Below, in pieces: positions 32,936-51,412 of a DNA stretch of 51,462 bases. Source of the stretch: a virus. Position numbers and translations under genes: made by a program. The notes below the pieces were generated by a model, which was not told the DNA's origin, made no database searches, and was given only the letters and a program-made list of their open reading frames with translations. The first letter of the stretch is position 1; each line of letters opens with the position of its first letter. The stretch lies in UHGV virus genome UHGV-0127437, one strand, 5' to 3'.

Positions 32936-33004
32936 TACCTATAAAACGAAATGATCAACGTTTTAAGAGCACGAATTGTTAACCCATAGACACAAATTTC
33001 AGGC

Positions 33005-35136: not shown

Positions 35137-35738
35137 CCACATGGAAATTTTATGATGACAATGCCTTACGTTTATTTAATGACTATCAATCCCTAAATTT
35201 TAAAGATATATTTTCTGACGTTGAATCCTACTTCCTTGCTTCCCGCGGAGATGCTCTGGACGTAGGTGCTGGTTCTGGAAGGGATTCTGCTGCTTTATTT
35301 AAAATGGGCTACAATGTAACAGCTGTAGAGCCAAGCGATAACATGCGAAATCTTGCGGCCGAAAATCATAAGCACTGTGATATTACTTGGGTCAATGATT
35401 CATTGCCTGAACTAAGAAAGATCACTCAATCACTAAAGACCTTTGACCTTATAATTGTTAGTGCAGTCTGGATGCACCTAAATGAAAACCAGCAGGAGAG
35501 GTCGTTATTTACTCTATTCAATCTTCTATCCGCCAATGGAGTTATGATCATTACATTGCGATTAGGGCCAGCCGAACCCGATAGACAAATCAGTGTGATT
35601 TACACAGAAGATTTAATTGCTCTTTCAAAAAAATTAGGGCTAACGGTTGAATATATTAGCCCTGTCAATACGGATAGTTTTAATAGACCATCCGTTACTT
35701 GGCAAAAAGTGGTTTTATCTAAAAAAACCACTTCATAG
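35133..35738 (+). CDS. Class I SAM-dependent methyltransferase (substrate unknown)
   Basis: 201-aa ORF with motif I DVGAGSGRDSAAL and downstream acidic/hydrophobic motifs of Rossmann-fold MTases; no DPPY/NPPY DNA-MTase motif seen. Confidence 0.65.
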   Translation: MTTWKFYDDNALRLFNDYQSLNFKDIFSDVESYFLASRGDALDVGAGSGRDSAALFKMGYNVTAVEPSDNMRNLAAENHKHCDITWVNDSLPELRKITQSLKTFDLIIVSAVWMHLNENQQERSLFTLFNLLSANGVMIITLRLGPAEPDRQISVIYTEDLIALSKKLGLTVEYISPVNTDSFNRPSVTWQKVVLSKKTTS

Positions 35739-35744
35739 ATGCCA

Positions 35745-36989
35745 TTACTCACAAAGCCCATAACGTGATGAACAGACCTCGGTATTCAGGCTTGATTTGA
35801 CCAAGTCGTAGACTTTCCCCCCGCGACCTGTTTTGGCCCACTCCACAACTTCATCAACACTTGGCGAGTTCAGGTTTGCGCGAGGTCCATAGAACCCAGA
35901 CCAATCAATATGCTGCACCTCAGGTTCTAACCCATAGAGCTGCACATTTCTACCAAGGGGCAGGTCAAACGACTTCATCCAGCGCTGGTTTATCTCGCCA
36001 ACACTCATCCAGTGAACCCAGCGAGACGTTAGACGAACCTTCAGCTCCCACTCTTTGTGCTTCTCAATATGCTCCGGCCAGCGCGAAAATGTCTCAGCAA
36101 TTTCTTCTTTGTTACACAGCACGCAATTCATACAACCGACACGTGAGGCTCCCTGCGTGTAAAGCGGGTTTGGCGATATCCCGAAGTATTTGTGGAGCGC
36201 GAATACATCTGTGGCCGTCCACTGGTGAATGGGAAGGAAGTTATACAAAAAATCCGGGTCACGCTTGTCAGTGGAGAAGCGCTCATAGCTGGCTCTCTTT
36301 GATGACTCATCTGCCCGTACACCAGACCACTGGACGACCACGTCGCCATCATCCAGCATTGGTTGCAGAGCTTTATCAAAGGCGATCTGAATTTTGAGCT
36401 CATCGGTACAGAATCGGTCGCGAAGCATCGGAAATTTACCATGCAACAGTGCGCAGTCTAGAAAGCTATTTCCGCTTGGATGCATAACAGACAGAGCAGC
36501 ATCCAGCGCAGTTTCGAATTCAATTCCCCAACGCTCAGCAGTACGCAGCCAGGCCTGCCCAAACGCTGTATCGGAGCGGCCGAGTGAAGGCATAACAACA
36601 CCCCTATATGCCCCCATACGAATGGCCTGACGCTTAACCCAGTTCTTCTGGATGTATCCTCGGCGGCGTTCAAAATCAACCTCGGTATATATCCGCTTAA
36701 CAACCTGAACTGGCGCGCATCCAATCTGTTCATGGATAGTTTTTGCGAACTGTACGGTAAGCTCGTGTTCATTATCTGTATCAGCCATAACAGCCTGAAC
36801 TCTACCGCCAAACAATGCATGGGCAACTGCCAGAGTGGCCGTGCTGTCCTTTCCTGCTGAATAATTGACGACGATTTTGTGATCATCAGGGATGCGGAAT
36901 TCAGTGAGGTAGCGATTATAGGCCAATCCAATTTCGCGAATTTTTTCGCTGATGTCGGTCGGTGCAATAATCATTGCTGCGTTGCTCAT
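35745..36989 (-). CDS. Phosphoadenosine phosphosulfate (PAPS) reductase-family PP-loop protein (IbrA-like phage protein)
   Basis: 414-aa ORF with PP-loop motif NYSAGKDST and extended C-terminal domain; resembles phage/prophage PAPS reductase-like proteins as recalled. Confidence 0.7.
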   Translation of the reverse strand: MSNAAMIIAPTDISEKIREIGLAYNRYLTEFRIPDDHKIVVNYSAGKDSTATLAVAHALFGGRVQAVMADTDNEHELTVQFAKTIHEQIGCAPVQVVKRIYTEVDFERRRGYIQKNWVKRQAIRMGAYRGVVMPSLGRSDTAFGQAWLRTAERWGIEFETALDAALSVMHPSGNSFLDCALLHGKFPMLRDRFCTDELKIQIAFDKALQPMLDDGDVVVQWSGVRADESSKRASYERFSTDKRDPDFLYNFLPIHQWTATDVFALHKYFGISPNPLYTQGASRVGCMNCVLCNKEEIAETFSRWPEHIEKHKEWELKVRLTSRWVHWMSVGEINQRWMKSFDLPLGRNVQLYGLEPEVQHIDWSGFYGPRANLNSPSVDEVVEWAKTGRGGKVYDLVKSSLNTEVCSSRYGLCE

Positions 36990-37399
36990 AGCTTCACTCC
37001 ATGACGTAGTTGGGCGGTAAACTCTTTAGCCACCGTTGAATATGGATGTTCATGACAATCAAGGACTTTCAAACTGTCAGCAAACATCTCCACACCCTGA
37101 GCCCGAACTTCTGCCAGGTACGCGTCGGTTGCCGGGGTGATCATAGCTGCCACCGCGTCATCGATATGACAATCATCAATACCGCAAAAATTCGCCTCTT
37201 CACGGTTCGCGTTCAGGTGGCGAATGATCTTTTTGGCAGCCTTAAGCCCCGCATTCTCGGCAGCCAGCGCCGCGAGCTTGGCTTCCGATTCGGCAAGTTT
37301 CTTACGCAAACCAGTTTCACAGGTATGCGCGCCGCTGCGCCCCCTCTCAAAGGAGAATCCGCAGTCACAATAAAAAACGTTGTCTTTCTCGGTGATCAT
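36986..37399 (-). CDS. Hypothetical protein with coiled-coil (Ead/Ea22-like)
   Basis: 137-aa ORF, ATG start; LAESEAKLAALAAENAGLKAA coiled-coil and Cys/His-containing ends. Confidence 0.4.
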   Translation of the reverse strand: MITEKDNVFYCDCGFSFERGRSGAHTCETGLRKKLAESEAKLAALAAENAGLKAAKKIIRHLNANREEANFCGIDDCHIDDAVAAMITPATDAYLAEVRAQGVEMFADSLKVLDCHEHPYSTVAKEFTAQLRHGVKL

Positions 37400-37656
37400 G
37401 CAGCCGCCTTGTTGTGTGAAAAACGTTTCAGGTCAAAGTCGATAGTTGCCCGCAGGTCACGGAAGATTCCGCAGCGCCCGTGACGAACCAGGCCACCCTG
37501 CTCTACCGCTACGCGGAGATATTTCTCCGCTGTGGTCCGGTGCAGGCCGAACATCGCAACGACGTCATTCGTGGTGATGCGTCCCTGCTCCTTCACAAGT
37601 TCGATAATCCGGTTGATGATCAGGGTGCGTTCTTTGTCGGTTTTCTTTCTGGCCAT
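37396..37656 (-). CDS. Hypothetical small DNA-binding-like protein
   Basis: 86-aa ORF, ATG with GGGAGGG RBS; basic, helix-rich. Confidence 0.4.
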   Translation of the reverse strand: MARKKTDKERTLIINRIIELVKEQGRITTNDVVAMFGLHRTTAEKYLRVAVEQGGLVRHGRCGIFRDLRATIDFDLKRFSHNKAAA

Positions 37657-37659
37657 CGG

Positions 37660-38346
37660 TTATTCCCTCCCTGTCAGCTGCTGAACGAGATTTCTGTGGC
37701 GACCAATAACACGAACCGCGTCACGCAGTTTGGTCAGTTGCTCCAGCTTGTTTCTGGTGCGGCGGATTTCGCGAGAAATGTCCCGCACCGCTGGTACCGC
37801 TTCGACTGCGGCGCGCCCTTCAGTGAACGAGGGGATTTCACTCACGATCTGTTCGACCGGTTTTGCTTCTTCCGGCGCGGCAGGTGCCTCCGGTACCGGT
37901 TCTTGCTTAACGGGTTCTGTCACAACAGCAAGGGACCAGGTAACGCCTTTGCCCTTCCCGTTCTTCACCACAACGCCCTGGCGCTCCAGCGCGCGAAGAA
38001 CAGAGACCATTCCGCGGGCATTGCGATTGACGGCCGCGGCCAGCGAAACGGTCGTCATTGCCCCCTGCTCACGCAGCTGCTGTCGGACGACATCAGGATC
38101 TACGGGTTCCGGCTCCTCACCTTTCAGGCGCGGCGCCGGATGAACAGGTGCATTAGGCGTTGACTGCTGAGACTGACCTTTCACGGTACCGAGGAACCAG
38201 CCGCCGTCTCCAAAATCGCATAACCCCTGATCACGCTGCTCACGTAACATGGTGAGCGCATCAACCGGGTCGATTTCAAGACGGTCAGCAACTTCGCGGT
38301 ATGTCGCCCGCCCCATTTTTTCCAGTACCTGAATTACGGTTTCCAT
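37660..38346 (-). CDS. Hypothetical protein (winged-helix-like N-terminus, Pro/Glu-rich linker)
   Basis: ORF with ATG at 38346 and GAGG RBS (track start is TTG at 38361). Confidence 0.45.
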   Translation of the reverse strand: METVIQVLEKMGRATYREVADRLEIDPVDALTMLREQRDQGLCDFGDGGWFLGTVKGQSQQSTPNAPVHPAPRLKGEEPEPVDPDVVRQQLREQGAMTTVSLAAAVNRNARGMVSVLRALERQGVVVKNGKGKGVTWSLAVVTEPVKQEPVPEAPAAPEEAKPVEQIVSEIPSFTEGRAAVEAVPAVRDISREIRRTRNKLEQLTKLRDAVRVIGRHRNLVQQLTGRE

Positions 38347-38357
38347 GTGATTTCCTC

Positions 38358-39047
38358 TCAAATCAGTCCAGCGTCTTTTCGCTGTTTGTATTTCGCCATC
38401 AGCATCTGCGCCGGAGTCGGGCCTCGATCCTGATCTGGTGCGGTAAGTGCCCGACGTACTGGTGGAACTGGTTTCCCATCGAGAACACGCATTTCCCAGT
38501 CGTGGAGTAAATCGCCAGCAACGCGAACAAGCTCTTTCTCGCTGAGCTGGCCGTCAGTACCGCGTCTGCGCAGTTCAAGGCAAATGTGATAGAGCACGGG
38601 CTGGCTCCACGGGTATTGCTCACTGGTCGGGTAGCGAAAAACCAGCTTTCGCCAGCGCCAGTATTCGCTCATGATGTCGTCCACACTGACCCCCAGCGCG
38701 CCACTCCCCTCACGGCACCACGAAATAAACTGACCCGGCGACGGCCAGAACGGTGACTGACTGGATCGGGCTTTCTGCATTCCGGCTGAAAGCTGCTCAC
38801 GGGAGGTGATGCCTGACTCAGCAAAAGCGGCGATCCATTGCTGCTTTGCAACGCGAATATCATCGCCAGTACGTAGGTTCGTCTGAGTGGATGCCGGAAA
38901 TACCTGCATGAGATTTTCAAAAAGCATATCCACCAGCTTTTCAGCGTCACTGTTAACAACCTTACGGCCGTCGTAAGAATCTCCAGCCATGCGCGATAGC
39001 ATTTCGCTGTCGCGATTCTGAATTGCACGATAAAGATCCGGGGTCAT
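38358..39047 (-). CDS. Replication protein P-like helicase loader
   Basis: ORF with segment FPAS...SPFWPSPGQFISWCRE closely resembling lambda P (PFLPSPGQFVAWCRE) as recalled; ATG overlaps O stop (ATGA). Confidence 0.7.
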   Translation of the reverse strand: MTPDLYRAIQNRDSEMLSRMAGDSYDGRKVVNSDAEKLVDMLFENLMQVFPASTQTNLRTGDDIRVAKQQWIAAFAESGITSREQLSAGMQKARSSQSPFWPSPGQFISWCREGSGALGVSVDDIMSEYWRWRKLVFRYPTSEQYPWSQPVLYHICLELRRRGTDGQLSEKELVRVAGDLLHDWEMRVLDGKPVPPVRRALTAPDQDRGPTPAQMLMAKYKQRKDAGLI

Positions 39048-40042
39048 AAAAATTTCTCCCATGCTTCAGCACTGTTCCAGTGCGGGCCGGTTTCGGATTT
39101 GCTTGCGCTGACATCTGCGCGTGGCTTGCGGGTAGTGTCTTCACGGTGAAGGGTTAACGTGTCCCACTTGGCGCGGAGCTTTGCGGGGGAGAGAATATTT
39201 TTGTACCAGAACGAGTCTTTGCAGGCCCATCTGAACAACTCACAAATCTCTTTGTGGGTGCGTCCGTCCAGCTGGCGCATCAGGCGTATGTCATTCGCCC
39301 AGCCAGCCATGTTTGGTTTTTTCAGGGATGGTTTGGTGATGTCACGCAGCGCCAGCATCCACTCTGCGCAGCGGAGATCGTCAGATGTCCCCCACTTGTC
39401 ACCTTTCGGAGTCTGGACTGCTGCATCAGGAACAACTTTGGAAATTCTCTGACGTACATTAAATACGTTAGTATTTAATATATATTGTTCATGATGTGCG
39501 CTTGTTTGTGCGGATGTATGTGCGCTTTCATGTGCGCTACCTACCGCCAAACCCGCGCCGTTACTGGCTTCGCCATGTGCGGGCATATGTGCGCTGGTAT
39601 GTGCGGAAGTTTGTGCGGGCAAATTGTCCATTTTTTGAGCATATTCGGCATAATTTGAGATCGTGATCACACGCCCTCTTTGCCGCTCCCCTTCAATGGA
39701 AATCATCCCTTCACGCACAAAAAACGTCAGCATTCTCTCAACAGCATCACGGCTTGTTGGGTTGCCTTTTCTGTCACGTAGTTTCAGGCCCAGATCGGCC
39801 GCCGTGGTCACCAGTTGTCCGGTTTGTAGCGGCCATTGGCGACCTTTAAAGCTCGCTGTGTATGGCTGGCTGGCAGCGCCCAAAAGCAGGTTATCCCACA
39901 ACGTACGCAGGTAAACATCTTCTGACCAGGGCTGCTTGAGTACACTCCGGTACAACGGGATGAATCCGGTCTTCTGGTTTTCCATCCGGTTGCTCCTGAC
40001 GGCGGTACGCGCCGCAAAATCGGCGTAGGCGACATTCGACAT
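39044..40042 (-). CDS. Replication initiator O-like origin-binding protein
   Basis: 332-aa ORF upstream of P; internal repetitive AHTSAH/SAHxSAH linker encoded by iteron array; ATG start. Confidence 0.7.
   Translation of the reverse strand: MSNVAYADFAARTAVRSNRMENQKTGFIPLYRSVLKQPWSEDVYLRTLWDNLLLGAASQPYTASFKGRQWPLQTGQLVTTAADLGLKLRDRKGNPTSRDAVERMLTFFVREGMISIEGERQRGRVITISNYAEYAQKMDNLPAQTSAHTSAHMPAHGEASNGAGLAVGSAHESAHTSAQTSAHHEQYILNTNVFNVRQRISKVVPDAAVQTPKGDKWGTSDDLRCAEWMLALRDITKPSLKKPNMAGWANDIRLMRQLDGRTHKEICELFRWACKDSFWYKNILSPAKLRAKWDTLTLHREDTTRKPRADVSASKSETGPHWNSAEAWEKFL
39495..39662. repeat. Origin of replication: two clusters of four 12-bp iterons (core tgtgcg) followed by AT-rich region, inside O gene
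   Basis: tgtgcg cores at 39495, 39507, 39519, 39531, 39576, 39588, 39600, 39613 with 12-bp periodicity; AT-rich stretch 39620-39662. Confidence 0.65.
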
Positions 40043-40157
40043 AGCTATGCCTCCCTTGCCTGGTGTTTTGAAAAACTCTTTGTCATAATGACCTCGTGAT
40101 TTCGCCTGGAATTACACCGAAGGCCGTCTGTGTTGGCGCACAGCGGTCTTCACCCTT

Positions 40158-40412
40158 TCAGAACAAGCCCTGTTGCCTGCCCCGTTTAGCCCGTTTTGAA
40201 TCAAACCGATCAGCCGGTAATGTTTGCTTTTCTGCCCACAATTTCGCGTGGCGTAAAACATCATCAAAAATCCTCCCCTTTCTGCTTGCCTGACTCATTC
40301 GCTTGTACATATCGACGGCCTGAAATGCCCCCCCCTGAGCCACCGCTACGGTGAAGCCCTGGCGGATCAACTCTTCCCGGACGTGCTTTTCTATGAACTC
40401 CAAATGATTCAT
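40158..40412 (-). CDS. Hypothetical protein
   Basis: 84-aa ORF, ATG start, between cII-position gene and O. Confidence 0.4.
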   Translation of the reverse strand: MNHLEFIEKHVREELIRQGFTVAVAQGGAFQAVDMYKRMSQASRKGRIFDDVLRHAKLWAEKQTLPADRFDSKRAKRGRQQGLF

Positions 40413-40421
40413 CTGGTAACC

Positions 40422-40964
40422 TCACATGACACCCGGCGCTATGGCCGCGATACCACTCAGAACCTGAACGACAGCATCACCCGGCAACATATTCAGCAGA
40501 TGCTCAATCCCTTCCCTGACCTCTTTCACCAGCTGATGCTTTGGCGCATTCAGCATTACGGCCTGTTTCGCCTCGCTGATTTCCTTCTCCATCGCTGCAA
40601 AACGCGTCATGAAACAATCCTGTCCGATAAGACGCCCACGAAATTCCATCGGCAAAACAGCCAGGATTGCAGGAGTCAGCTGGCGGATGTTTTCGCGCGC
40701 ATATCCGGTATCACTGTCCAGCCAGCGGAAAAGCTTCTGCCGCTTACGGCTCAAGTCATCAGGAAAATCCAACCCGGCGCCGCCCTGCCGTTCCCATTCT
40801 TCAACGATGATCCCGGCGACTACGTCCTGGTTGTCCAGCGATGCCGACCACGCACGAACGGCAGCACGAATCTGGTCATGCTTATCCGCCGGATCAGGCT
40901 GATTGCGATTTATCATCGTGGCCGGAGGAAACCCGGTATTTTGTTGAAATGAAATTGAATGCAC
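40422..40964 (-). CDS. YdaT-like protein at cII position (regulator/toxin-like family)
   Basis: 180-aa ORF immediately downstream of cro; segments EEWERQGG...LTPAILAVLPMEFRGRL resemble Rac prophage YdaT as recalled; GTG start with GAGGG RBS. Confidence 0.45.
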   Translation of the reverse strand: MHSISFQQNTGFPPATMINRNQPDPADKHDQIRAAVRAWSASLDNQDVVAGIIVEEWERQGGAGLDFPDDLSRKRQKLFRWLDSDTGYARENIRQLTPAILAVLPMEFRGRLIGQDCFMTRFAAMEKEISEAKQAVMLNAPKHQLVKEVREGIEHLLNMLPGDAVVQVLSGIAAIAPGVM

Positions 40965-40966
40965 GG

Positions 40967-41200
40967 TTACGCCCTCGCTTCCTGCGCCGGTAATCCATCC
41001 GTTGGGTTCGGATACAGATCAGGGCGCAATTCGTGAGGGGTAACACCGGTTATGCTGTGAATTTTTAATATGTAATCTGGCGGCACAATGCCTCTGTCGC
41101 GATGTTTCCAATGGCTAATTGACATACTGGTTACACCAAGTGCCATGCTTAACTTTCTCGCTGAACCAGCAGCCTTAATTGCTTTATCAAGTGCTGTCAT
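40967..41200 (-). CDS. Cro-like HTH transcriptional regulator
   Basis: 77-aa ORF divergent from cI-like gene; HTH segment ARKLSMALGVTSMSISHW; AGGAG RBS. Confidence 0.6.
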   Translation of the reverse strand: MTALDKAIKAAGSARKLSMALGVTSMSISHWKHRDRGIVPPDYILKIHSITGVTPHELRPDLYPNPTDGLPAQEARA

Positions 41201-41301
41201 TTTCTTCTCCTAACTATCAACGAAGAAAGTAAACCACAGATTTATATTTCAAGCAATATTCAATTTATTGAGTGTGTAAACTAACCATTTACAATGAGAG
41301 A

Positions 41302-41685
41302 ATGAGAAAAGAAGAACCCAACAAAGCATTGATAGCGCGACTCAATGAGGTCTATGCCAGAGGCATTACCAAAGCAGATATGGCGCGAATAGCCGGAGTC
41401 TCGCCTCAGGCGGTCAATAGCTGGTTTAAAAAAGGCGTTATTAGCAAAAAATCAGCACTGGCTATAGCCGATGCTGTTGGCGTTTCGATCGCCTGGCTAC
41501 TCGGGGAAGATGTCGGCGAGAAAGATGGTATGAAGCCCGACGAGCAGCGCCTGCTGGAACTCTATCGCCAGTTGCCGGAAGAAGAGCAGCAGAACATGTT
41601 GCGGATCGTGTCTCTGCGCCTTAAGGAACTCGACGAGCTGTACGCCAAGTACATGGGACGGCGGATTAAGGGTGATGCGGAATAA
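41302..41685 (+). CDS. CI-like prophage repressor, HTH (XRE family) without S24 peptidase domain
   Basis: 127-aa from ATG at 41302 (track GTG at 41272); HTH ITKADMARIAGVSPQAVNSWFK; too short to contain LexA-like autocleavage domain. Confidence 0.65.
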   Translation: MRKEEPNKALIARLNEVYARGITKADMARIAGVSPQAVNSWFKKGVISKKSALAIADAVGVSIAWLLGEDVGEKDGMKPDEQRLLELYRQLPEEEQQNMLRIVSLRLKELDELYAKYMGRRIKGDAE

Positions 41686-41777
41686 CTCCCCACGGAGAGC
41701 TTATGAGGCTGGGTATTGCACATAGGCCATACGAACCACCTCTGGGTAGAAAACTTAAATAAAATTTAATAGTGGGA

Positions 41778-42692
41778 ATGGTAATGGAAGCACCTTATCA
41801 ATTAGAATTCACTGAAAACATTTATTATTCAATAGGTAATAACCCCAGCATTAAAGAAATCATTGAGTCTCTTCAAGGCTGGGAAGCTATTATCAAACAA
41901 TCTAAAGGAGTCCTTGCAGAGCTAACTGGAAGTGATATCCTGGATATTGAAGTTAGGGTTCAAAAGTTAGAAGTCGGGAGCCTAACTGAAAAAATTCTTA
42001 TCAAGTTAGGTTTTGGCAACGAAGAGAATTTTGATAAATTTCTCGAAAATGCGCATGAAAGGTACATCGGAGAAGGAAAAATGCGTAGCGCCTTAGTTTG
42101 GACGGTTATAGCAGGTGTACTCGCCACGGGTATGTATTTAGCCGTCAAAAACATGGCACCCAATAATGCCTCCCACTTCGAAGCAAATAATAATATAATC
42201 ATTAACATAGGTGCTGGCGAAACTAACATTTCACCTGAAAGAATACAGTCGGTGCTCAATAGTACATTAGTTGATAAAAAAACCGCTGCCAAAGGTGCTG
42301 TCAAAATTTTATCTCCAGCGCGAAATGACGAAAATGCAACATTAATGATAGGTAGCGATAACACTTCCGTAACAATACCTTCAGATTTAATCTCTAAAAC
42401 ACCAACCGAGGTTAGTTTTGAAGCTGATACATATACTCGAGACCATTACGATGTTGACCTTGAGATAAGAGCTCTTGATCTCGACAATCCGACAAAGGGA
42501 TGGGCTGCCGTGATTCCTGGCTTAGTTGATCGAAGGGTAAAACTAGTTTTGGCACCCGGGATTAAACCAGAAGACCTATCCCATAAATTCGCCTTCCGCG
42601 CTGATGTAACCATTACTTATAAACTTACGTCATCTAAAGGCGAAGCATACAAGCCAACAGAAATATTTTTAAGCAAATTAATCGCGGAATGA
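41778..42692 (+). CDS. Hypothetical single-TM protein downstream of repressor (rexAB-position cargo; candidate exclusion/abortive-infection gene)
   Basis: ~305-aa AT-rich ORF co-oriented with cI, one central hydrophobic helix (LVWTVIAGVLATGMYLAV), followed by strong terminator. Confidence 0.5.
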   Translation: MVMEAPYQLEFTENIYYSIGNNPSIKEIIESLQGWEAIIKQSKGVLAELTGSDILDIEVRVQKLEVGSLTEKILIKLGFGNEENFDKFLENAHERYIGEGKMRSALVWTVIAGVLATGMYLAVKNMAPNNASHFEANNNIIINIGAGETNISPERIQSVLNSTLVDKKTAAKGAVKILSPARNDENATLMIGSDNTSVTIPSDLISKTPTEVSFEADTYTRDHYDVDLEIRALDLDNPTKGWAAVIPGLVDRRVKLVLAPGIKPEDLSHKFAFRADVTITYKLTSSKGEAYKPTEIFLSKLIAE

Positions 42693-42696
42693 AATT

Positions 42697-42722
42697 AACC
42701 CGGCCACCGCGCCGGGTTTTTA
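42697..42722 (+). terminator. Rho-independent terminator ending immunity-region transcript
   Basis: Stem cccggc/gccggg, 6-nt loop, T5 run immediately after stop codon of 306-aa gene. Confidence 0.7.
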
Positions 42723-43037
42723 TTGCCCTTTCCTCACAAACTCCGCAGCATCCCTCTTTGCGCCCTTGACTGTTTAGCAGCTATACACGCTACATCTACT
42801 TAATCAGGCTATCCTTGTTGATATATGATGCAAATAATCAGTTGGGAAATAATAAGAGAGTATCTGATAGTATGCCTGGTAACTGTTGTTATGGTCGCCG
42901 CGATTTCACTGGTTATGCTGGCCTGGTGAATTTTGCAGGGGTCTTTTCCCTGAAACATGCGCGACAACACACTCTGGTAAGACAAGCTCTGTTATGGTGC
43001 ATGAACAAGAAATAACAGCACCATATATCCGACTTAC

Positions 43038-43072
43038 AGCCCGGATTACGACACGTTCCGGGCTTTTTTTTT
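43038..43072 (+). terminator. Strong rho-independent terminator
   Basis: Stem gcccgga/tccgggc with 11-nt loop followed by T9. Confidence 0.75.
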
Positions 43073-43075
43073 GCC

Positions 43076-43285
43076 CTATTCTTCCAGCAACTTCACCGCC
43101 AGTTCCATCGCCTGAATCTGGTCAGCATCCCACTTATCCAGCCCCTTCGATATCTCCGTTCGTATCACGTCAGCTATAGCCACTCTTTTGGTTTCATGCC
43201 CTTCAGCCACCATCGCAAACACAACATCACCCACAATCCGGCACATTTCCTGATAGCGCAACTGCGCCAGTTCCTCGTAATCCAT
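43076..43285 (-). CDS. Hypothetical small acidic protein
   Basis: 69-aa ORF from ATG at 43285 with GAGGG RBS (track start is GTG at 43327). Confidence 0.4.
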   Translation of the reverse strand: MDYEELAQLRYQEMCRIVGDVVFAMVAEGHETKRVAIADVIRTEISKGLDKWDADQIQAMELAVKLLEE

Positions 43286-43558
43286 CACTAACCCTCGGCA
43301 ATTGATGTTTTTGTGAGCATAACACACGCTCCCTCTCCCAACATATAAACCTAAAATTTACACCAAACATTAATTGAAAGTTGACACAACTATAAACCAG
43401 TGATTTAATCAATATCACAGCAACACGACCACCCAGGCAGGACGCCCACGAAGTAGCCGTCCGGGGCATACGAAGACCGGAATGAGGTGGATGAGTTAAC
43501 GCGCAGCAGGTATCAAACGTTCCGCCAGCCGGGCGACAACGGCAAGCAGAGGGTGAAA

Positions 43559-43831
43559 ATGAAAATTGATTTAGATCTCAAGGCGCAGGGAGTTGACGTT
43601 TCAACCAGCGGTTATCGCGATTTTGTTAACGCCGAAATTCGCGGCGTTGAAGTGGATGATGTGCTGGAAGAAATCGAAAGCGATGTACTGTTCGCTGCCA
43701 TCGACCTGCCGGATTACATCGACTGGGCTGACAACAACAGCAAGTTACCGGAAATTCTGGATCGTCTTTCTCCTGACGAGGTCATTAGCTGGCTTCGCGA
43801 TAACGGGCATCTGGAGGATAACGATGATTAA
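43559..43831 (+). CDS. Hypothetical acidic protein, first gene of early-left operon
   Basis: ATG at 43559 with GAGGGTG RBS (track start is GTG at 43487). Confidence 0.45.
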   Translation: MKIDLDLKAQGVDVSTSGYRDFVNAEIRGVEVDDVLEEIESDVLFAAIDLPDYIDWADNNSKLPEILDRLSPDEVISWLRDNGHLEDNDD

Positions 43832-43951
43832 CCAGCAGCAAGTCCGGGAGGCTCAACGCCTTGCATGGTTCGCCGTTCGGCATCGCAATATCCAGGTATG
43901 GGAAGAAGCCAAACGTATTTACGCACTTGCTATCGGGAGGACTCTTCACTG

Positions 43952-44137
43952 ATGGAGACGCTATTCGCACTGGTATTAACGGTCGCAATGACCAACGGTG
44001 ACTTTCAGGATGTGATTCTCGGTGTATATGACAACCAGCAGGAATGCCAGGCCGCAGCTGTCGAGCAAAAGGTTAATGGTGAGTGCTGGCCTGTTGAGGG
44101 AATTATTCGCAACGGAGAGCTGCCAGCAAGCATCTGA
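43952..44137 (+). CDS. Hypothetical small protein with hydrophobic N-terminus
   Basis: 61-aa ORF from in-frame ATG at 43952 overlapping upstream small ORF stop. Confidence 0.35.
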   Translation: METLFALVLTVAMTNGDFQDVILGVYDNQQECQAAAVEQKVNGECWPVEGIIRNGELPASI

Positions 44138-44146
44138 GGAGGGGTA

Positions 44147-44305
44147 ATGCAGAAAGAATGCGGTTACTGCCGCAAACCCGTTGAAGAAGGCAAAGAAGTA
44201 AAGAGCATCCTTTTCTATCGCAATGGCAACCGGCTTGCCAACAAAGAAAAAGAATACTGCTCAAAGCAATGCGCTGAATACGATCAGATGGCGCACGAAA
44301 GTTAA
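44147..44305 (+). CDS. Hypothetical 52-aa Cys-rich (zinc-ribbon-like) protein
   Basis: ATG preceded by GAGGAGGGG RBS; CGYC...CSKQC pattern; below the track length cutoff, translated by hand. Confidence 0.35.
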   Translation: MQKECGYCRKPVEEGKEVKSILFYRNGNRLANKEKEYCSKQCAEYDQMAHES

Positions 44306-44392
44306 CCAGCAGTCCTGAAATATGAAACAAAAAATTCGCCATTAATTTGGCGCGGCTTCTTACACCCTGAATTTAACAACCGGAGAAGTTTT

Positions 44393-44680
44393 ATGGAAAT
44401 CGTAAAAATCGAAATGAACCTGAAAGCAGTGAATAAAGAATTGGCTGTATTCAACTGCGAGAAGAAAGTATCAGGCGTTATTCATTCAGCCGAAACGGGC
44501 GCGGTCACGGTCATTCTTGACGGTGGCTATGTATTCGGCAAGTTCGACTGTCCTCTTTGTGCTGTAGAGGCAATTTCAATGCTGTCCGTAAAAGTAAGTG
44601 ATGGCGATAACGCCGGGTTTGGCAACTACCGCAGCTACAAACTCGATTACTCAGAAAAGGTTTTCAGCACCGTTCATTAA
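44393..44680 (+). CDS. Hypothetical protein
   Basis: 95-aa ORF, ATG start, early-left operon. Confidence 0.4.
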   Translation: MEIVKIEMNLKAVNKELAVFNCEKKVSGVIHSAETGAVTVILDGGYVFGKFDCPLCAVEAISMLSVKVSDGDNAGFGNYRSYKLDYSEKVFSTVH

Positions 44681-44807
44681 GCAAAAGCCCACACGAAGTG
44701 GGCCTGCCCGTCCGGCGTCACCGACCAAAGCGAACCGGACATTTCTACCTGGTAAAACCGAGGTGCCATTAAGGCGCCTCCATTCTACACGAATTGAGGA
44801 TAAAATA

Positions 44808-47720
44808 ATGAGTGGAACTAATCCTGTATTTTTAGTCCGCAAAGCAAAGAAATCATCAGGCCAGAAAGATGCAGTTCTCTGGTGCAGCGATGATCTTGAA
44901 GCGGCAAATGCCACACTGGATTATCTCCTGATTAAATCCGGCGCAAAGCTGAAAGATTATTTTAAAGCTGTTGCCACTAATTTCCCCGTCGTTAACGAGC
45001 TTCCGCCAGAAGGCGAACTCAGCTTAACGTTCTGCGATTTCTACCAGCTTGGAAGCGACAACATGACCTGGGCGCAGATCCCCGGTGTTACGTTGCCCTC
45101 TTCTGATGCTGCCGCCGAAGCACGTCAGCATATCGTTAACGGTGTTGATACCGAAACAGGTGAAGTGCTGGAAGATCACACAGAAGAAGTTGTTGATACC
45201 GAAACTGGCGAAATTACCCAGCACGAACAGCCGTCAACTGAAGACAATGGCGATCGACCTGAACACCCTCAGTTAACTGTTGTGGCAACGATGCCCTTCC
45301 GTCATCGCGTTCTGGCTCAACATATTGGCGATGGCGAGTATCTCTATCATGTCGATGAAGAGCAGAAAAAAGCAATTCTCGCTCTGGAAATGGACACTGA
45401 TAACTCATATGTCCAGAACCTTTTACTTGCGTCTGAGAATGTTGAACCATTCAAAAAGGCCATTGAACACGATATCCATAAAGCGGTAAATGCTGTTAAG
45501 AACGTGTTTCCTGCCGATGGCAAAATCCCTGAGCTGGCAAGCGTTATCCAGTTTCTGAAAACATGGTTCGATACCCCTCATATTGATCGCGGGCTGCTCG
45601 TTAAAGAGTGGTGCAAAGGTAATCGTGTATCAGCTATTCAGCGTACTGAAAGCGGCGCGAACGCTGGCGGCGGAATTGCATCCGATCGCAAAATGCCCCA
45701 GACCACTCTCGGTCTTGAATTTGAAATAGCCTTAGGCCTGCTGGCGCGTCAGTATGAATTTGATATTTATTCTCTGCCATTGCAGATCGAACTAAAGGCT
45801 AATTCAATCATGAACGCAGTTGACGACCCTGAGTGGCTGGCAACGCGCGAACTGTTCGTGTCAATGCCTGGTGGTCTGGACTATTCCCGCGCATGCATCG
45901 TTGCAACGGTAAAAACCACACCAGATGAACTGTACAAATCCCCATTTCGCCACCGCGAGTACCTGAATAAGGTGCTGACAGAAACTGACCATGCCAATCC
46001 CGATCCGCTTGTCGTTGATATTGCCTGCGGACGTTCGTCCATGCCTATGCCAACGCCAGTAAGACAGGATGAACCATCCGTTGAAGAAGTAAACCGACAA
46101 CTCGCAGCTGCGCGCGGTGATTACGTTGAAGGTATCAGTGACCCTAACGATCCGAAGTGGGTTCATGAAGACTACAACGCCGCCTCAAATGAGGGAGAAA
46201 AAACGGAAAATGAGGACGTCGCCGATGTGCAGGTTCAAGAAACTGACGGTAATGAAGAACAGGCTGGTGATGCGCTGCGTACAAGCGAAAGCGATCTGGG
46301 GAATGGTGAAGAAGCAGATACCGGCGAACAAGCCGATGTAGACCACAATCAACCGGAAGTGAGCCAGAACAACGATTCTGCAAGCCATTCTGAGCCAGAA
46401 GCGCAACAGGAAGAACCAATGCCAGTGTGGCCGGAATACTTCGAGCCGGGGCGTTATGAAGGCGTACCGAACGAGGTATATCACGCGGCGAATGGCACCA
46501 GTTCGACGATGGTAAAAGATGCCCGGGTATCGCTGATGTATTTCGAGGCGCGCCACGTATCCAAAACCATCCAGAAAGAACGCACCAAAGTCCTGGATAT
46601 GGGGAATCTGGTGCACGCGCTGGCATTACAGCCTGAACAACTGGAAAAAGAGTTCAGCATCGAGCCGGAAATCCCGGAAGGTGCGCTCACGACGACAGCG
46701 ACGATCCGCGCGGTTATCGACGAACACAACGCCAGCCTGCCGGCATTACTCACCGCAGACGATATCAAAGCGTTGCTGGAAGAATACAACGCCACCCTGC
46801 CCGCGCCATTACCGCTTGGGGCATCCGTTGACGAAGCGTATGCGTCATATGAGCAACTCCCGGAAGAGTTCCAGCGCATCGAAAACGGGACTAAGCATAC
46901 AGCAGCGGCAATGAAGGCCTGCATCAAAGAATACAACGCCACCCTGCCGCCGCAGGTGAAAACCAGCGGAAGCCGTGACGCGCTGCTTGAGCAACTGGCG
47001 ATCATCAACCCTGACCTGGTCGCACAGGAAGCACAGAAGCCACAGCCGTTGAAAGTATCCGGCACCAAAGCGGATCTGATTCAGGCAGTGAAATCCGTCA
47101 AACCTGAAACAGTGTTTGCCGACGAGCTGCTTGACGCATGGCGCGAAAACCCCGGCGATAAAATTCTGGTTACCCGCCAGCAGTTGAGCACCGCGCAGGC
47201 CATCCAGAAAGCGCTGCTGAATCACCCGACCGCCGGGAAGCTGCTGACGCATCCGAACCGCGCCGTAGAGGTGAGCTATTTCGGTATTGATGAGGAAACC
47301 GGGCTGGAAATCCGCGTGCGCCCAGACCTTGAAATCGACATGGGCGGCCTGCGCATCGGTGCGGACCTGAAAACCATCAGCATGTGGAATATCAAGCAGG
47401 AAGGCCTGCGCGCCAAACTGCACCGGGAAATCATCGAGCGCGATTATCACCTGAGCGCTGCCATGTACTGCGAAACCGCAGCGCTGGACCAGTTTTTCTG
47501 GATATTCGTCAACAAAGACGAGAACTACCACTGGATCGCCATCGTCGAGGTATCCGAAGAGTTGCTGGAACTCGGCATGCTGGAATACCGCAAAGCAATG
47601 CGCGCCATAGCGAACGGGTTCGACACTGGCGAATGGCCAGCGCCGATTACCGAAGATTACGCCGAAGAACTCAACGATTTTGATGTGCGCCGCCTTGAAG
47701 CGCTGCGCGTACAGGCATAA
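44808..47720 (+). CDS. RecE-like exonuclease VIII (large early recombination protein)
   Basis: ~970-aa ORF from ATG at 44808 with GAGGA RBS, immediately upstream of RecT-like gene as in Rac recET; contains internal EYNATLP repeats. Confidence 0.55.
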   Translation: MSGTNPVFLVRKAKKSSGQKDAVLWCSDDLEAANATLDYLLIKSGAKLKDYFKAVATNFPVVNELPPEGELSLTFCDFYQLGSDNMTWAQIPGVTLPSSDAAAEARQHIVNGVDTETGEVLEDHTEEVVDTETGEITQHEQPSTEDNGDRPEHPQLTVVATMPFRHRVLAQHIGDGEYLYHVDEEQKKAILALEMDTDNSYVQNLLLASENVEPFKKAIEHDIHKAVNAVKNVFPADGKIPELASVIQFLKTWFDTPHIDRGLLVKEWCKGNRVSAIQRTESGANAGGGIASDRKMPQTTLGLEFEIALGLLARQYEFDIYSLPLQIELKANSIMNAVDDPEWLATRELFVSMPGGLDYSRACIVATVKTTPDELYKSPFRHREYLNKVLTETDHANPDPLVVDIACGRSSMPMPTPVRQDEPSVEEVNRQLAAARGDYVEGISDPNDPKWVHEDYNAASNEGEKTENEDVADVQVQETDGNEEQAGDALRTSESDLGNGEEADTGEQADVDHNQPEVSQNNDSASHSEPEAQQEEPMPVWPEYFEPGRYEGVPNEVYHAANGTSSTMVKDARVSLMYFEARHVSKTIQKERTKVLDMGNLVHALALQPEQLEKEFSIEPEIPEGALTTTATIRAVIDEHNASLPALLTADDIKALLEEYNATLPAPLPLGASVDEAYASYEQLPEEFQRIENGTKHTAAAMKACIKEYNATLPPQVKTSGSRDALLEQLAIINPDLVAQEAQKPQPLKVSGTKADLIQAVKSVKPETVFADELLDAWRENPGDKILVTRQQLSTAQAIQKALLNHPTAGKLLTHPNRAVEVSYFGIDEETGLEIRVRPDLEIDMGGLRIGADLKTISMWNIKQEGLRAKLHREIIERDYHLSAAMYCETAALDQFFWIFVNKDENYHWIAIVEVSEELLELGMLEYRKAMRAIANGFDTGEWPAPITEDYAEELNDFDVRRLEALRVQA

Positions 47721-47732
47721 GGGGGAATAACA

Positions 47733-48821
47733 ATGTCCAATTTAGTCGCCACCACTGAAAACCAAACTCAGAAAATCGACAACGTTTCTATCCTGACGAA
47801 CGGGGAACTGTTCAACCGCCTGCGCACGCTTTCGGAGGTAATGGCCAACAGTGGAAACTTCGTCCCAGATCATTACCGGGGGAAACCGGACGCCTGCATG
47901 GCTGTTGTGATGCAGGCTGCGCGCTGGGGCATGGATCCTTTCGCTGTAGCGCAAAAGACTTTCATCGTCGGGAATTCCGGTGTGCTTGGTTATGAAGCGC
48001 AGCTGGTTAATGCGGTGATCAACACTATGGCCCCCACTAAGGATCGTATCCACTTTGAATGGTTCGGCGAATGGGAAAATATCGTTGGACGGTTCGTGGA
48101 GAAGACAAGCAGCCAGAATAAAAAGTACATCGCGCCGGGCTGGAATTTGAAAGACGAAGCTGGCGTGGGCGTTCGCGCCTGGGCAACGCTTAAAGGTGAA
48201 TCTGAACCGCGCGAGCTGGTCCTGATGCTTTCGCAAGCACAGGTACGCAATTCAACATTGTGGGCAACCGACCCACGCCAGCAGTTAGCCTATCTCGCCG
48301 TTAAACGTTGGGCGCGTCTCTACTGCCCCGACGTGATTCTCGGGGTTTATACCGCCGATGAGATTGACGAGCGTGAGGAGAAGGTAATCAACCCCTCGTC
48401 TGTTGAAAGGGTCACCATTGATGAGATTGCCAGCAGTGCGCGCACGACAGCCAGCGCGCAGGAATCAACTAAAAACATCGATCAGTTAGCCGACGATCTG
48501 CGTGACCGCATTGAAAAAGCAATGACGGTCGACCAGGCAAGCGCTATCCGCGGTGAAATCGAGACCGAAAAACCAATACTTGGCACAGCTCTATACACGG
48601 AACTGAAAAATAAGGCCGTTCGTCGTTATTACCTGGTCGATCACCGCAACCGGGTGGAAGCGGCTATCAATGCCCTGCCTAACCCGGGCGAACCAGAAGC
48701 GGCAGAACTGTTTGCTAAAGCTGAAGGCGTTCTCAATGCCGCCAAACGTCACTTGGGCGATGAACTGTACGACCAGTTCCGCATCACCCTGGACGACATG
48801 AAACCGGAATACGTGGGCTAA
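47733..48821 (+). CDS. RecT/Redbeta-family single-strand annealing protein
   Basis: 362-aa ORF; conserved-core-like segment AVVMQAARWGMDPFAVAQKTFIVG...GYEAQLVNAVIN similar in pattern to Bet/RecT core as recalled; position after exonuclease gene. Confidence 0.6.
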   Translation: MSNLVATTENQTQKIDNVSILTNGELFNRLRTLSEVMANSGNFVPDHYRGKPDACMAVVMQAARWGMDPFAVAQKTFIVGNSGVLGYEAQLVNAVINTMAPTKDRIHFEWFGEWENIVGRFVEKTSSQNKKYIAPGWNLKDEAGVGVRAWATLKGESEPRELVLMLSQAQVRNSTLWATDPRQQLAYLAVKRWARLYCPDVILGVYTADEIDEREEKVINPSSVERVTIDEIASSARTTASAQESTKNIDQLADDLRDRIEKAMTVDQASAIRGEIETEKPILGTALYTELKNKAVRRYYLVDHRNRVEAAINALPNPGEPEAAELFAKAEGVLNAAKRHLGDELYDQFRITLDDMKPEYVG

Positions 48822-48861
48822 GGGAGGCGGGAGGGCGGCCCCTCCCGTCACAGGGGGTTAT

Positions 48862-49101
48862 ATGCGCCTTATCAATCGCAGTAAGCAATCTCCGTTAGGT
48901 CGTCGGGCATGCGATGCAGCACTGGCAAAGCATGTTGAGCTTTACGGGGAGTTTGGCCGACAGAAAACAAAGACCACTTATACCGTGGCGGTCGACGGCG
49001 TGAAGGTGACAGTAGAAGTTGTTAACCGACATAAGAGCTATGTCGCCACCGCAATGACAGGTATGCGCCGACTGCGCGCACTGCCAGGGCAGATTGCCTG
49101 A
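48862..49101 (+). CDS. Hypothetical protein
   Basis: 79-aa ORF between recT-like gene and excisionase. Confidence 0.35.
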   Translation: MRLINRSKQSPLGRRACDAALAKHVELYGEFGRQKTKTTYTVAVDGVKVTVEVVNRHKSYVATAMTGMRRLRALPGQIA

Positions 49102-49165
49102 TAACGAATTATCAATGTCACAACACCGGCGCATCTATACTGGCGCCGGTTACCTGAGGTGAACC

Positions 49166-49381
49166 ATGTCACAGGTAATTTTTAACGAAGAGTGGGTTGT
49201 TGAGTCCAGACTTACCGAAAGAACAGGACTTACTGAAGGACAGATTAAAAATTATCGCCAGAAACTATGGGTTGAAGGTGTTCACTTCAAGCGCCTTACT
49301 GCGCTTGGACAGACTGACAACTCTAAAGGTCTGCTTTGGTACAACTACCCGAAGATTAATCAGTTAGTTCAGGATGCTTAA
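49166..49381 (+). CDS. xis: Excisionase-like protein
   Basis: 71-aa ORF immediately upstream of and overlapping integrase start; size/position typical of Xis. Confidence 0.6.
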   Translation: MSQVIFNEEWVVESRLTERTGLTEGQIKNYRQKLWVEGVHFKRLTALGQTDNSKGLLWYNYPKINQLVQDA

Positions 49382-50667
49382 TGAAATACCCGACTGGTGT
49401 TGAACTGCATAACGGAAAAATCAGGATCACATTTATCTATCGCGGCATTCGTTGCCGCGAAGTTCTCCAGGGTTGGGTTGTCAACAGTAGCAATATTAAA
49501 AAAGCGGGCAATCTGCGCGCGGCAATTGTGAGTGAGATACAACTCGGTAAGTTCGACTACGCAGATCGTTTCCCGGAATCAAAGGCTCTTAAGAAATTTT
49601 CGTCCACAAAACGGATCTCCACATTCAAAGAACTGAGTGATTTTTTTACAGATACAAAGTCACTGGAGGTATCTGAAGCCACTTTGCTATCCATCACATC
49701 AGTCGTTAACACCCTGAAACGAGTCGTGGGCGAGAACACACGGCTGGTTGATATTCAGCACGCAGATATTCTGAATTACCGCAAAGAACTCCTGACCGGG
49801 GAGGTTTTCAACCCTTCAATGCCAAACCGCATCAAAAATGGGCGCGCGCCCTCAACAGTCAATAAACAGATGGCTGTTTTATCAGAAATGCTGAAGCTTG
49901 CAAACCGAAGCCAGTTTATATTGCATGCTCCTTATGAAGGAGTGTCGAGACTCAAGTTATCTAAAAATGATCCCGATCCACTTTTACTTCATGAGTACCA
50001 GGCACTGATAGCCGCCCTTCCCCGTAGCCAGGCATTAATCATCATTATTGCAGTGCATACGGGGATGAGGCCGGGCGAGATATGCGCACTGGCATGGGAA
50101 GATATTGATTTGGTAAAAGGTGAAATCCACGTATCCAGAAATTTGACGAACAAGCGAGTATTTGTACCCCCTAAAACAGATGCCGGGATAAGGACGATAA
50201 CGTTGCTGAAACCTGCTCATGATGCTCTGCTGGAGCAATACGAAATCACCGGGAACAGTCCAAAACAGGAAATTAAGTTTCATCATCGTGAGATCGGAAA
50301 AACTGAGCAGCAATATCTTCGCTTCGTTTTTTCACCGACATCATACTCGTCAACGAAAGGCGGTTACTTTTCCAAGGACTCGATTTCCTATGGCTGGAGG
50401 CGTGGAACTAAACTTTCAGGTATACGTGAGCGCAATCCATATCAGTCGCGTCACACATATGCCTGCTGGACGCTGATGGCCGGAGCGAACCCGTCGTTCA
50501 TTGCCAGCCAGATGGGGCATGAAGATGCGCGTATGGTGTACGAGGTTTACTCCAAGTGGATTGGTGACATGAACCAGGATCAGGTCAACATGCTGAACAA
50601 TCAGATGCCGACAGCACTGCCCCCAGGACGCCCCCACGGGCGAGGGAGTATGAAAAAAGTCATTTAA
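49381..50667 (+). CDS. int: Tyrosine site-specific integrase
   Basis: 428-aa ORF; catalytic-region motifs HTGMRPGE...(R) and SRHTYACWTLMAGANPSFIASQMGH...Y typical of lambda-family tyrosine recombinases. Confidence 0.85.
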   Translation: MKYPTGVELHNGKIRITFIYRGIRCREVLQGWVVNSSNIKKAGNLRAAIVSEIQLGKFDYADRFPESKALKKFSSTKRISTFKELSDFFTDTKSLEVSEATLLSITSVVNTLKRVVGENTRLVDIQHADILNYRKELLTGEVFNPSMPNRIKNGRAPSTVNKQMAVLSEMLKLANRSQFILHAPYEGVSRLKLSKNDPDPLLLHEYQALIAALPRSQALIIIIAVHTGMRPGEICALAWEDIDLVKGEIHVSRNLTNKRVFVPPKTDAGIRTITLLKPAHDALLEQYEITGNSPKQEIKFHHREIGKTEQQYLRFVFSPTSYSSTKGGYFSKDSISYGWRRGTKLSGIRERNPYQSRHTYACWTLMAGANPSFIASQMGHEDARMVYEVYSKWIGDMNQDQVNMLNNQMPTALPPGRPHGRGSMKKVI

Positions 50668-50737
50668 TTTCATAGCGCTGGTTTCAATCCACACAATCAG
50701 CGTTAAACTACTAATACCGTTAATTTAGGGAGAAAAG

Positions 50738-51412
50738 ATGATGCGCGTACTGGTTGTCGAAGATAATGCCTTATTACGCCACCACCTGAAGGTTCAATTA
50801 CAGGATTTGGGGCACCAGGTTGATGACGCAGAAGATGCAAAGGAAGCCGATTATTATCTTAACGAGCATCTGCCGGACATCGCCATCGTCGATTTAGGCC
50901 TCCCGGATGAAGACGGGCTTTCGCTGATCCGCCGCTGGCGCAGCAATGACGTTTCCCTTCCTGTTCTGGTATTAACCGCCCGTGAGGGCTGGCAGGATAA
51001 AGTGGAAGTGCTGAGCGCCGGCGCCGACGACTACGTGACAAAACCATTTCATATTGAAGAAGTGGTCGCGCGTATGCAGGCGTTAATGCGCCGCAACAGC
51101 GGCCTGGCCTCGCAGGTTATCTCTATTCCGCCTTTTCAGGTGGATCTCTCCCGCCGTGAATTGTCCGTAAATGATGAAGTGATAAAACTGACGGCGTTTG
51201 AATACACCATTATGGAAACGCTGATCCGCAATAATGGCAAAGTCGTCAGCAAAGATTCGTTGATGCTACAGCTCTACCCGGATGCGGAACTGCGTGAAAG
51301 CCATACCATTGATGTATTAATGGGGCGCTTACGCAAAAAAATTCAGGCGCGATATCCTGATGATGTGATTACCACCGTCCGTGGTCAGGGATACCTGTTC
51401 GAACTGCGCTAA
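50738..51412 (+). CDS. phoP: Response regulator PhoP (OmpR family)
   Basis: 224-aa [26 protein letters not shown]...[12 protein letters not shown] essentially colinear with enterobacterial PhoP as recalled; receiver Asp and winged-helix domain. Confidence 0.9.

Follow-up and report, generated by a model that had tools for sequence, protein, structure and literature searches.

A lambdoid prophage at the −10 region of the PhoP-activated phoPQ promoter of Citrobacter koseri, and phage-borne signals that may serve phoPQ in its place

Several temperate elements, such as e14 and phage 21 (icd) and the phages that use tRNA genes, insert into a gene and bring along a substitute for the part that they displace. 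Others are known as phage regulatory switches, for example Listeria phi10403S in comK and SpyCIM1 in the mutS-mutL operon of S. pyogenes. The phoPQ operon encodes a master regulator, whose two promoters P1 and P2 were reportedly mapped by Kato in 1999. Deletion of P2 left P1 responsive, and in E. coli and Salmonella the constitutive P2 has its −35 further upstream. The published phoP promoter belongs to architecture I, with a single direct PhoP box at 12 nt from the −10 hexamer and class II activation, while promoters of the mgtC type (architecture V) have a reverse box 48 nt upstream of the −10 (Zwir 2012, PMC3335776). Direct boxes function at distances of 12, 23 or 33 nt from the −10. In Salmonella, reverse boxes do so at 37 and 48 nt (mgtC/pagC- and pagK-type), and the phoP box itself remains functional when moved to such a reverse-box position. 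Positive autoregulation of PhoPQ, a textbook feedback loop, shapes both the dynamic range of this regulator and its surge of transcription, and PhoPQ controls colistin heteroresistance in Enterobacter (Kang et al.).

The DNA analysed here, referred to as the window, is the complete 51,462-nt stretch of the viral genome UHGV-0127437, and its features are collected in Table 1. According to the original prediction an integrase gene ends at 50667 and phoP starts at 50738, 70 bp further on, and the list of open reading frames agrees: the int stop codon (TAA) occupies 50665-50667, the gap of exactly 70 bp runs from 50668 to 50737, and the phoP ATG is followed by a second ATG at 50741. The integrase combines an N-terminal Arm-DNA-bind_2 domain (PF12167, E = 2.4e-25) with a Phage_integrase catalytic domain (PF00589, E = 2.5e-17, residues 204-391), and phoQ, starting at 51412, runs past the window edge. 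Both the integrase and PhoP are exact matches to entries of Citrobacter koseri ATCC BAA-895 (ABV13048 and ABV13049, respectively); contigs with an identical PhoP number 750, and those with an identical integrase 150. PhoP (224 aa) and PhoQ (487 aa) were intact at all ten C. koseri loci, in any prophage state.

Table 1. Features of the phoP-proximal end of the prophage and of its attachment sites (coordinates refer to the window).
Feature	Position	Strand	Sequence or content	Basis
Prophage body, right-hand 50.7 kb	1..50690	.		L093 identical to window 1-11000, then attL, purB
xis-like gene	49166..49381	+	71 aa, DUF1233 putative excisionase	ORF list; PF06806, E = 6e-23
Tyrosine integrase gene int	49381..50667	+	428 aa, final phage gene, reads toward phoP	ORF list, Pfam
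Reverse PhoP-box-like site inside int	49852..49868	-	TGTTTAttgacTGTTGA, 11/12 to consensus	Consensus scan
−10-like hexamer	49917..49922	+	TATATT, 48 nt downstream of reverse box, toward phoP	Conservation
Second synonymous-constraint peak, int 3' end	50569..50607	.	About 85-120 bp from core	Third-position conservation 0.92-0.95
Phage non-coding segment	50668..50690	+	TTCATA 50669-50674, GGTTTC 50680-50685	Differs completely from attB
att core, attR copy	50691..50705	+	ACACAATCAGCGTTA, includes P1 −10 hexamer	Common to attL, attR, attB
Native phoP 5'UTR	50706..50737	+	SD AGGGAG 50727-50732	Identical to prophage-free C. koseri
phoP	50738..51412	+	224 aa, Response_reg and Trans_reg_C	ORF list, Pfam
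attB sequence			...CCCCCCGGTTTAcgaaaTGTTTAtccccgccgcaaCATAATCAGCGTTAaactactaatacc...ATG	Prophage-free C. koseri
attL sequence			Left side as attB, then ...caaCACAATCAGCGTTAgactgcgaatg... (phage)	
attR sequence			...TAAtttcatagcgctggtttcaatccaCACAATCAGCGTTAaactactaatacc...ATG	Window

The attachment site was defined by comparing attB, attL and attR within C. koseri. The attL sequence was taken from a contig (L093) that encodes exactly the UmuC of the window, is identical to window positions 1-11000 and extends left to purB, and attB from prophage-free C. koseri (L099, L106 and L108), found via contigs encoding exactly this PhoP. The comparison yielded a 15-bp core with the consensus ACAyAATCAGCGTTA. 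The sequence ACACAATCAGCGTTA is present at both prophage ends, that is, in attL of L093 (the same lysogen) and in attR of the window, and attB has a single copy, ACATAATCAGCGTTA; from core to core the prophage measures 50,896 bp. A direct-repeat search for the att pair inside the window found none, because the left window end is still prophage and attL lies 191 nt beyond it. One pattern scan of viral contigs for a free-phage attP returned only an attL beside an old remnant (L098); the viral contigs that include flanks, more than 50 in number, all represent integrated forms.

At attB the native PhoP box GGTTTAcgaaaTGTTTA is located 12 nt upstream of the −10 hexamer CATAAT. This spacing is that of the published architecture I, so that, as judged from the alignment, the att core covers the −10 hexamer and the start region of the PhoP-activated promoter P1, and integration splits P1 between the activator site and the −10, thereby separating the native PhoP box from phoPQ. 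The box and all sequence upstream of it stay beside purB at attL, about 50.9 kb from phoP and facing into the prophage; attL, with the displaced box, lies 191-205 nt past the left window edge. The upstream elements of P2 would likewise be 50.9 kb away at attL, a position that we infer solely from P1 remaining responsive when P2 is deleted. What phoPQ keeps of its native promoter at attR is the −10, the start region and the 5'UTR. The suspicion that the attachment junction falls within or next to the phoPQ promoter is thus borne out, the core sitting on the −10/start region itself. The native PhoP-box direct repeat that was expected in roughly this interval scores 12/12 at −75 in prophage-free C. 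koseri; in the alignment with this prophage-free relative the native box falls on the attL side.

The −10 retained at attR (50692-50697) reads CACAAT, the phage allele, as opposed to the native CATAAT. Within C. koseri, CATAAT was found at attB and CACAAT at every attR, while the attL hexamer was CACAAT in the lysogen of the window (L093/L096) and CATAAT in L092, L094, L095 and L097. A C at both prophage ends is unexpected if the hexamer position lies outside the crossover region.

Judged by its distribution, the phoP-proximal core is a dedicated site of this integrase family and not an accident. Integrase DNA, as phage or as decayed remnant, adjoins the same core in 17 of 80 species-representative phoP loci, the 17 coming from Citrobacter, Enterobacter, Lelliottia, Scandinavium, Pseudescherichia and others, and attL joins consisting of purB, the PhoP box, the core and the phage arm were found in 11 viral contigs. 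All integrases with downstream sequence (84-100% identical, more than 50 viral contigs) show this join to phoP, in an identical register. The same int-phoP join occurs in 59 distinct sequences from many assemblies, from which it follows that the junction is not an assembly accident. Among the 20 C. koseri contigs listed, 12 carried the native site and 8 (about 40%) phage DNA. When int and the junction were compared by megablast with 50,697 phage records and 5,426 complete E. coli genomes no match was obtained, nor did the int-internal module described below match the E. coli genomes, and the nearest integrases among sequenced phages are at most 51% identical. In the literature searched, no description of a prophage site at phoP or between purB and phoP was found.

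Two further arrangements at this core were noted. In L098/L143 (IMG/VR 3300012242_000008) a complete new prophage occupies the core beside an old Enterobacter-type int remnant, which implies that a remnant-bearing site is still a usable attB and that this host carries two box-TATATT modules. In Citrobacter amalonaticus S646 (L009, 2826-2990) about 130 bp are inserted into the phoP 5'UTR immediately behind the core (CAGCGTTA|CAATACTTC...), so that the PhoP box, itself intact, now stands at −204. The insertion may be the scar of another element using the same core.

At the other prophage end, the complete P1 (box, −10 and start) at attL points into the phage P' arm, and no terminator-like site was found between it and the first phage gene. 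In C. koseri this first gene is a convergent umuC, so that antisense transcription is predicted. In several relatives of Enterobacter/Citrobacter type (L081, L085, L087-L089) the first gene encodes an SRAP protein (YedK-like, MCGRF...) and is co-directional, about 250-320 nt downstream of the core. Capture of the displaced P1 by phage genes was therefore rejected as a general feature, given a co-directional SRAP-like gene in some prophages and a convergent umuDC in C. koseri and others. The left-end cargo of the window includes umuC/umuD-like translesion polymerase genes (50-1740, minus strand) and a gtrA/gtrB/gtrC-like O-antigen glucosylation cassette (2040-4909, plus strand) with a low GC content (0.34-0.35); sister prophages at the same site (L092, L094) carry an acyltransferase instead. 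Elsewhere in the prophage, Rfam gave matches to the Salmonella island sRNAs isrB (99.9 bits; 44682-44770, minus strand) and isrJ (69.2 bits; 29532-29602, minus strand), both far above the gathering score, and about ten CTCCTG hexanucleotide repeats are located in the structural-gene region (19067-19143; 12-nt register in the repeat finder).

The 70-bp gap between int and phoP consists of 23 bp of phage DNA, the 15-bp core and 32 bp of native 5'UTR. It had been noticed that only one GGTTT-like half-site, in the string ctggtttcaatcc (50678-50690), could be seen here. The absence of a full PhoP box was confirmed: scored against the consensus (T/G)GTTTA-N5-(T/G)GTTTA, the best site on either strand of 50600-50737 reached 8/12, a score attained by 88% of shuffled sequences, as compared to 12/12 at the prophage-free attB. 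A direct box 12 nt upstream of the −10, as in architecture I, is accordingly lacking at attR and found only at attL, outside the window. Reading the GGTTT as what is left of the native box has to be abandoned, since it belongs to the phage DNA and its distance to the −10 is 6 nt instead of 12 nt; other members of the phage family have GGTTCC, GCTTTC, GGTGTC or GATTCC in its place.

The phage segment does supply another element. Directly after the int stop codon it contributes TTCATA, exactly 17 bp upstream of the retained −10, and across 59 unique junctions TTCAT is nearly invariant and the 17-bp spacing is kept, while GGTTT varies. The resulting combination, TTCATn-17-CAyAAT, is the top plus-strand promoter-like site within 1.7 kb upstream of phoP and scores about 7 bits compared to about 3 bits for native P1 without PhoP, on an approximate sigma-70 weight matrix built from textbook frequencies. 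Its consensus match is modest (8/12), a consensus scan of 49000-51000 found no sigma-70 site of at least 9/12, and both promoter candidates discussed in this work are weak by consensus (8/12). The hybrid junction promoter is probably constitutive and expected to be PhoP-independent. The non-coding phage segment shows a conservation of 0.91 compared to 0.83 for the int 3' coding region (0.75 at third positions), and the att-proximal block reaches 0.85-1.0 in remnants, but integrase core-binding could explain this conservation equally well as promoter function. A search of 49000-51000 for terminators revealed only one weak terminator-like hairpin, located inside int, and none between int and phoP, so that read-through from int is possible; RNA folding of 50640-50745 likewise indicated neither structure nor terminator (z = −0.62, no U tract).

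A second candidate is located within int itself, where the reverse PhoP-box-like site TGTTTAttgacTGTTGA precedes the hexamer TATATT, with a start predicted near 49929; the module is 815 bp upstream of phoP. This site is the only match of at least 11/12 in the 51-kb window, both orientations having been scanned. About 0.8 such matches are expected by chance in 51 kb, which is why the case rests on conservation and not on the match itself. In a set of 74 unique intact int genes (78-100% nucleotide identity), the 8-codon window over the box had a third-position conservation of 0.968, the highest in int, compared to a gene mean of 0.727, and AGTTTATATT was invariant in all 74, while the hexamer-flanking codons were at about 0.54. 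The major codon is used at 0.92-1.00 across the box and at 1.00 for CAG-TTT-ATA. The codons of the module differ from the rest of int (Mann-Whitney p = 5e-4), the constraint being confined to the box and CAGTTTATATT. As for the GTTTA/GTTGA cores, no change was seen in any of the remnants examined, and 73 of the 74 intact genes keep them as well, the exception, TCAACGGTCAATCAACA, breaking one core; all other box variation falls on half-site position 1 and the spacer, and conservation drops sharply immediately outside box and hexamer. Integrases with other integration sites (PHB10, an Stx2a phage and a Klebsiella phage) differ in residues and codons at the homologous spot and contain no box there. 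Downstream of the module there are no genes other than phoPQ.

In its reverse box and spacing the arrangement resembles architecture V, for which a reverse box 30-58 nt upstream of the −10 was sought and found (11/12 at 48 nt; 37 nt in L042 and L059), and the int-internal promoter is probably PhoP-responsive, to judge from this arrangement and its conservation. By inspection, a lone AGTTTA/GGTTTA half-site overlaps the hexamer and has no partner half-site at 11-nt spacing that would make a second box. Two other readings of the module were rejected. A minus-strand promoter, for which the same box would be direct and 12 nt from ATTTTT, would have a hexamer without the key A, and the region upstream is unconserved in the Scandinavium, L052 and L059 remnants. 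Nor can an overlapping reading frame be the cause of the synonymous constraint, as none of at least 40 aa overlaps 49849-49922. In intact prophages the untranslated 815-nt leader could be cut short by Rho, which would count against the int-internal promoter. The second constraint peak, at the int 3' end, probably reflects protein-binding sites of the attP P-arm within the int coding sequence; motifs of the GCCCCCA type at 50617-50640 resemble the P' arm GCCCC(C/T)AAA repeats.

What hosts retain after the prophage has decayed was examined in ten deep remnants (L024, L026, L030, L055, L049, L042, L052, L056, L060 and L059). All ten keep the same piece of int (about 49848-49922), which begins shortly ahead of the box and stops with the hexamer, together with the att-proximal 80-200 bp, and less decayed copies also retain the box-hexamer piece. 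In all remnants the hexamer reads TATATT, AATATT or TATAGT and lies at 48 nt or, in two independent cases, at 37 nt, two 11-nt deletions at different positions having shortened the spacing by one helical turn with the phase kept. The remnants present at least five different upstream contexts and differing downstream deletion end-points; their independence was judged from these flanks and end-points, and they may share more ancestry than the flanks suggest. In the vertically inherited Enterobacter remnant lineage, conservation within the purB-phoP spacer is 0.81-0.90 for the module and 0.85-1.0 for the junction and 5'UTR, both above a neighbouring ORF (0.65-0.75). Both phoP and phoQ are intact in remnant-bearing species.

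In the remnant loci (region 2000-3000) purB is only 0.7-2.5 kb from phoP, without the native PhoP box or a second core; the interval contains a moron gene, the int fragment of about 75 bp and the att-proximal junction, and the deletion begins directly after the purB terminator, at the expected box position. These loci are labelled E. intestinihominis, E. hormaechei, E. quasihormaechei, E. cloacae M-7, E. pasteurii, Scandinavium spp., Pseudescherichia vulneris and others. An exception that counts against the module is one C. koseri locus (L107, OW969711.1), where no more than roughly the final 280 bp of int are left beside phoP, with other phage genes (DUF551, DinI and TolA-like) upstream and the box-TATATT module absent; it constitutes a natural module-minus control. 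PhoP has been described to shift a −230..+20 fragment of phoP of E. cloacae ATCC 13047 in EMSA, with a conserved box (Kang et al.). Such a fragment would span either the native box (−75) or the reverse box of a remnant (−177), and the result is compatible with both and undiagnostic.

Taken together, the 50.9-kb lambdoid prophage splits P1, its tyrosine integrase having inserted it at the 15-bp core by ordinary lambda-type recombination. The best explanation, which we hold with moderate confidence, is that phoPQ would now be served by phage-supplied signals, for which there are two candidates. Transcription of phoPQ could then start from (a) the hybrid junction promoter, formed by the phage TTCATA, 17 bp and the retained −10 and independent of PhoP, or (b) the promoter inside int, formed by the reverse PhoP-box-like site, 48 nt and TATATT, whose transcript would read through the int 3' end into phoPQ and restore PhoP-dependent feedback in an altered form. 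When the prophage decays, hosts would keep exactly the box-hexamer module and the junction piece upstream of phoP. Autoregulation of phoPQ would thus probably be rewired and not simply lost. The earlier suggestion that integration altered phoPQ autoregulation stands as far as the native box is separated from phoPQ, whereas a plain loss appears improbable in view of the phage TTCATn and of an int module aimed at phoP. The wider proposal, of a phage family that takes over phoPQ feedback by a portable PhoP-responsive promoter in int, kept by hosts after decay, is more tentative, and we rate its chances at somewhat under even.

Feedback may nevertheless have been simply lost, with constitutive expression of phoPQ from the hybrid promoter or by read-through from int/xis, and with the int element serving some other purpose, for instance as a PhoP-independent promoter or a phage regulatory site. 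The native box is indeed gone from attR, the hybrid TTCATn-17-CAyAAT exists throughout the family, no terminator follows int, and the PhoP-box match in int, taken alone, is at chance level. Yet such a loss leaves unexplained why hosts devoid of any phage functions keep exactly the piece from box to hexamer, why variation spares the GTTTA/GTTGA cores and why the spacing changed twice by exactly 11 nt, and nothing but phoPQ is found downstream of the module; we therefore regard it as unlikely, though still a serious contender. A silencing of phoPQ by integration, giving PhoPQ-low lysogens that revert only upon excision in the manner of a regulatory switch, would fit the split of P1, the weakening of the −10 to CACAAT in C. 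koseri, and the intact int and xis genes, which make excision possible. It is hard to reconcile with phoP and phoQ being intact and highly conserved in lysogens as well as in species with fixed, non-excisable remnants, and with the conserved promoter-like blocks upstream of phoP in those remnants; PhoPQ is moreover functional in E. cloacae ATCC 13047, which may be of native or of remnant type. We consider silencing very improbable. Slightly less probable again is that autoregulation persists through the GGTTTC half-site that the phage brings close to the −10: TGGTTTCA does occur more often than any other variant, in 37 of the 59 unique junctions, but the best full-box score is the chance-level 8/12 and the distance to the −10 matches none of the functional spacings of 12, 23 and 33 nt, in addition to the variation within the family. 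That the native promoter lies intact, PhoP box included, downstream of the att site is refuted by the direct attB/attL/attR alignment within C. koseri, and we attach practically no weight to it.

The splitting of the phoPQ feedback loop represents a natural, recurrent and polymorphic rewiring, and in several representative Enterobacter genomes phoP is not preceded by a native PhoP box at all. If phage-derived feedback as proposed above holds true, the representatives of E. hormaechei, E. quasihormaechei, E. intestinihominis and E. pasteurii, and likewise those of an E. cloacae strain, some Scandinavium and Pseudescherichia vulneris, would express phoPQ, their master sensor of Mg2+ and antimicrobial peptides, from a phage-derived promoter of different architecture. 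A PhoP-responsive module would mean that a phage compensates for the regulatory damage of its own integration and that hosts have domesticated a phage-derived promoter for a core regulator. Either way, isogenic pairs of lysogens and cured strains, together with native versus remnant-bearing species, offer a test of the role of the feedback architecture in virulence, Mg2+ adaptation and polymyxin heteroresistance.

With regard to known systems, the integration machinery resembles the lambda-type Int/Xis system in the arm-binding N-terminal integrase domain, the adjacent excisionase-like gene, the orientation of int toward att, the 15-bp core at both ends, the empty attB in sister strains and the GCCCC(C/T)AAA repeats in the P' arm. 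It differs in its target, which is the −10/start of an activator-dependent promoter instead of an intergenic spacer, a tRNA or a gene 3' end, so that the prophage comes to lie between the activator site and the gene. On the host side, the attachment site corresponds to P1 of the native phoPQ promoters of E. coli and Salmonella, with a direct box 12 nt from the −10, but in the lysogen attL holds this box and, by inference, the upstream part of P2 at a distance of 50.9 kb. As in e14 and phage 21, the phage arm beside int appears to supply a substitute for the displaced part; here, however, the substitute would consist of regulatory elements, namely a −35-like sequence together with a PhoP-box promoter, and not of a duplicated coding or tRNA 3' end; it is non-homologous to the displaced sequence and lies partly inside the int ORF. 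The putative promoter module in int shares with the Salmonella architecture V promoters (mgtC, pagC, pagK) a reverse box at 48 nt (37 nt in two remnants) upstream of the −10 and the lack of a recognisable −35, but it is located inside an integrase ORF, and a second box is not evident. As in the regulatory switches, the prophage cuts a host gene off from the signals that normally drive it, and the native arrangement would return upon excision; the comparative data, for their part, suggest compensation by phage-borne promoters and not on/off switching. What appears unusual, in an otherwise ordinary integration mechanism, is the target, the core of an autoregulatory promoter, and the phage-borne regulatory substitute that would accompany it.
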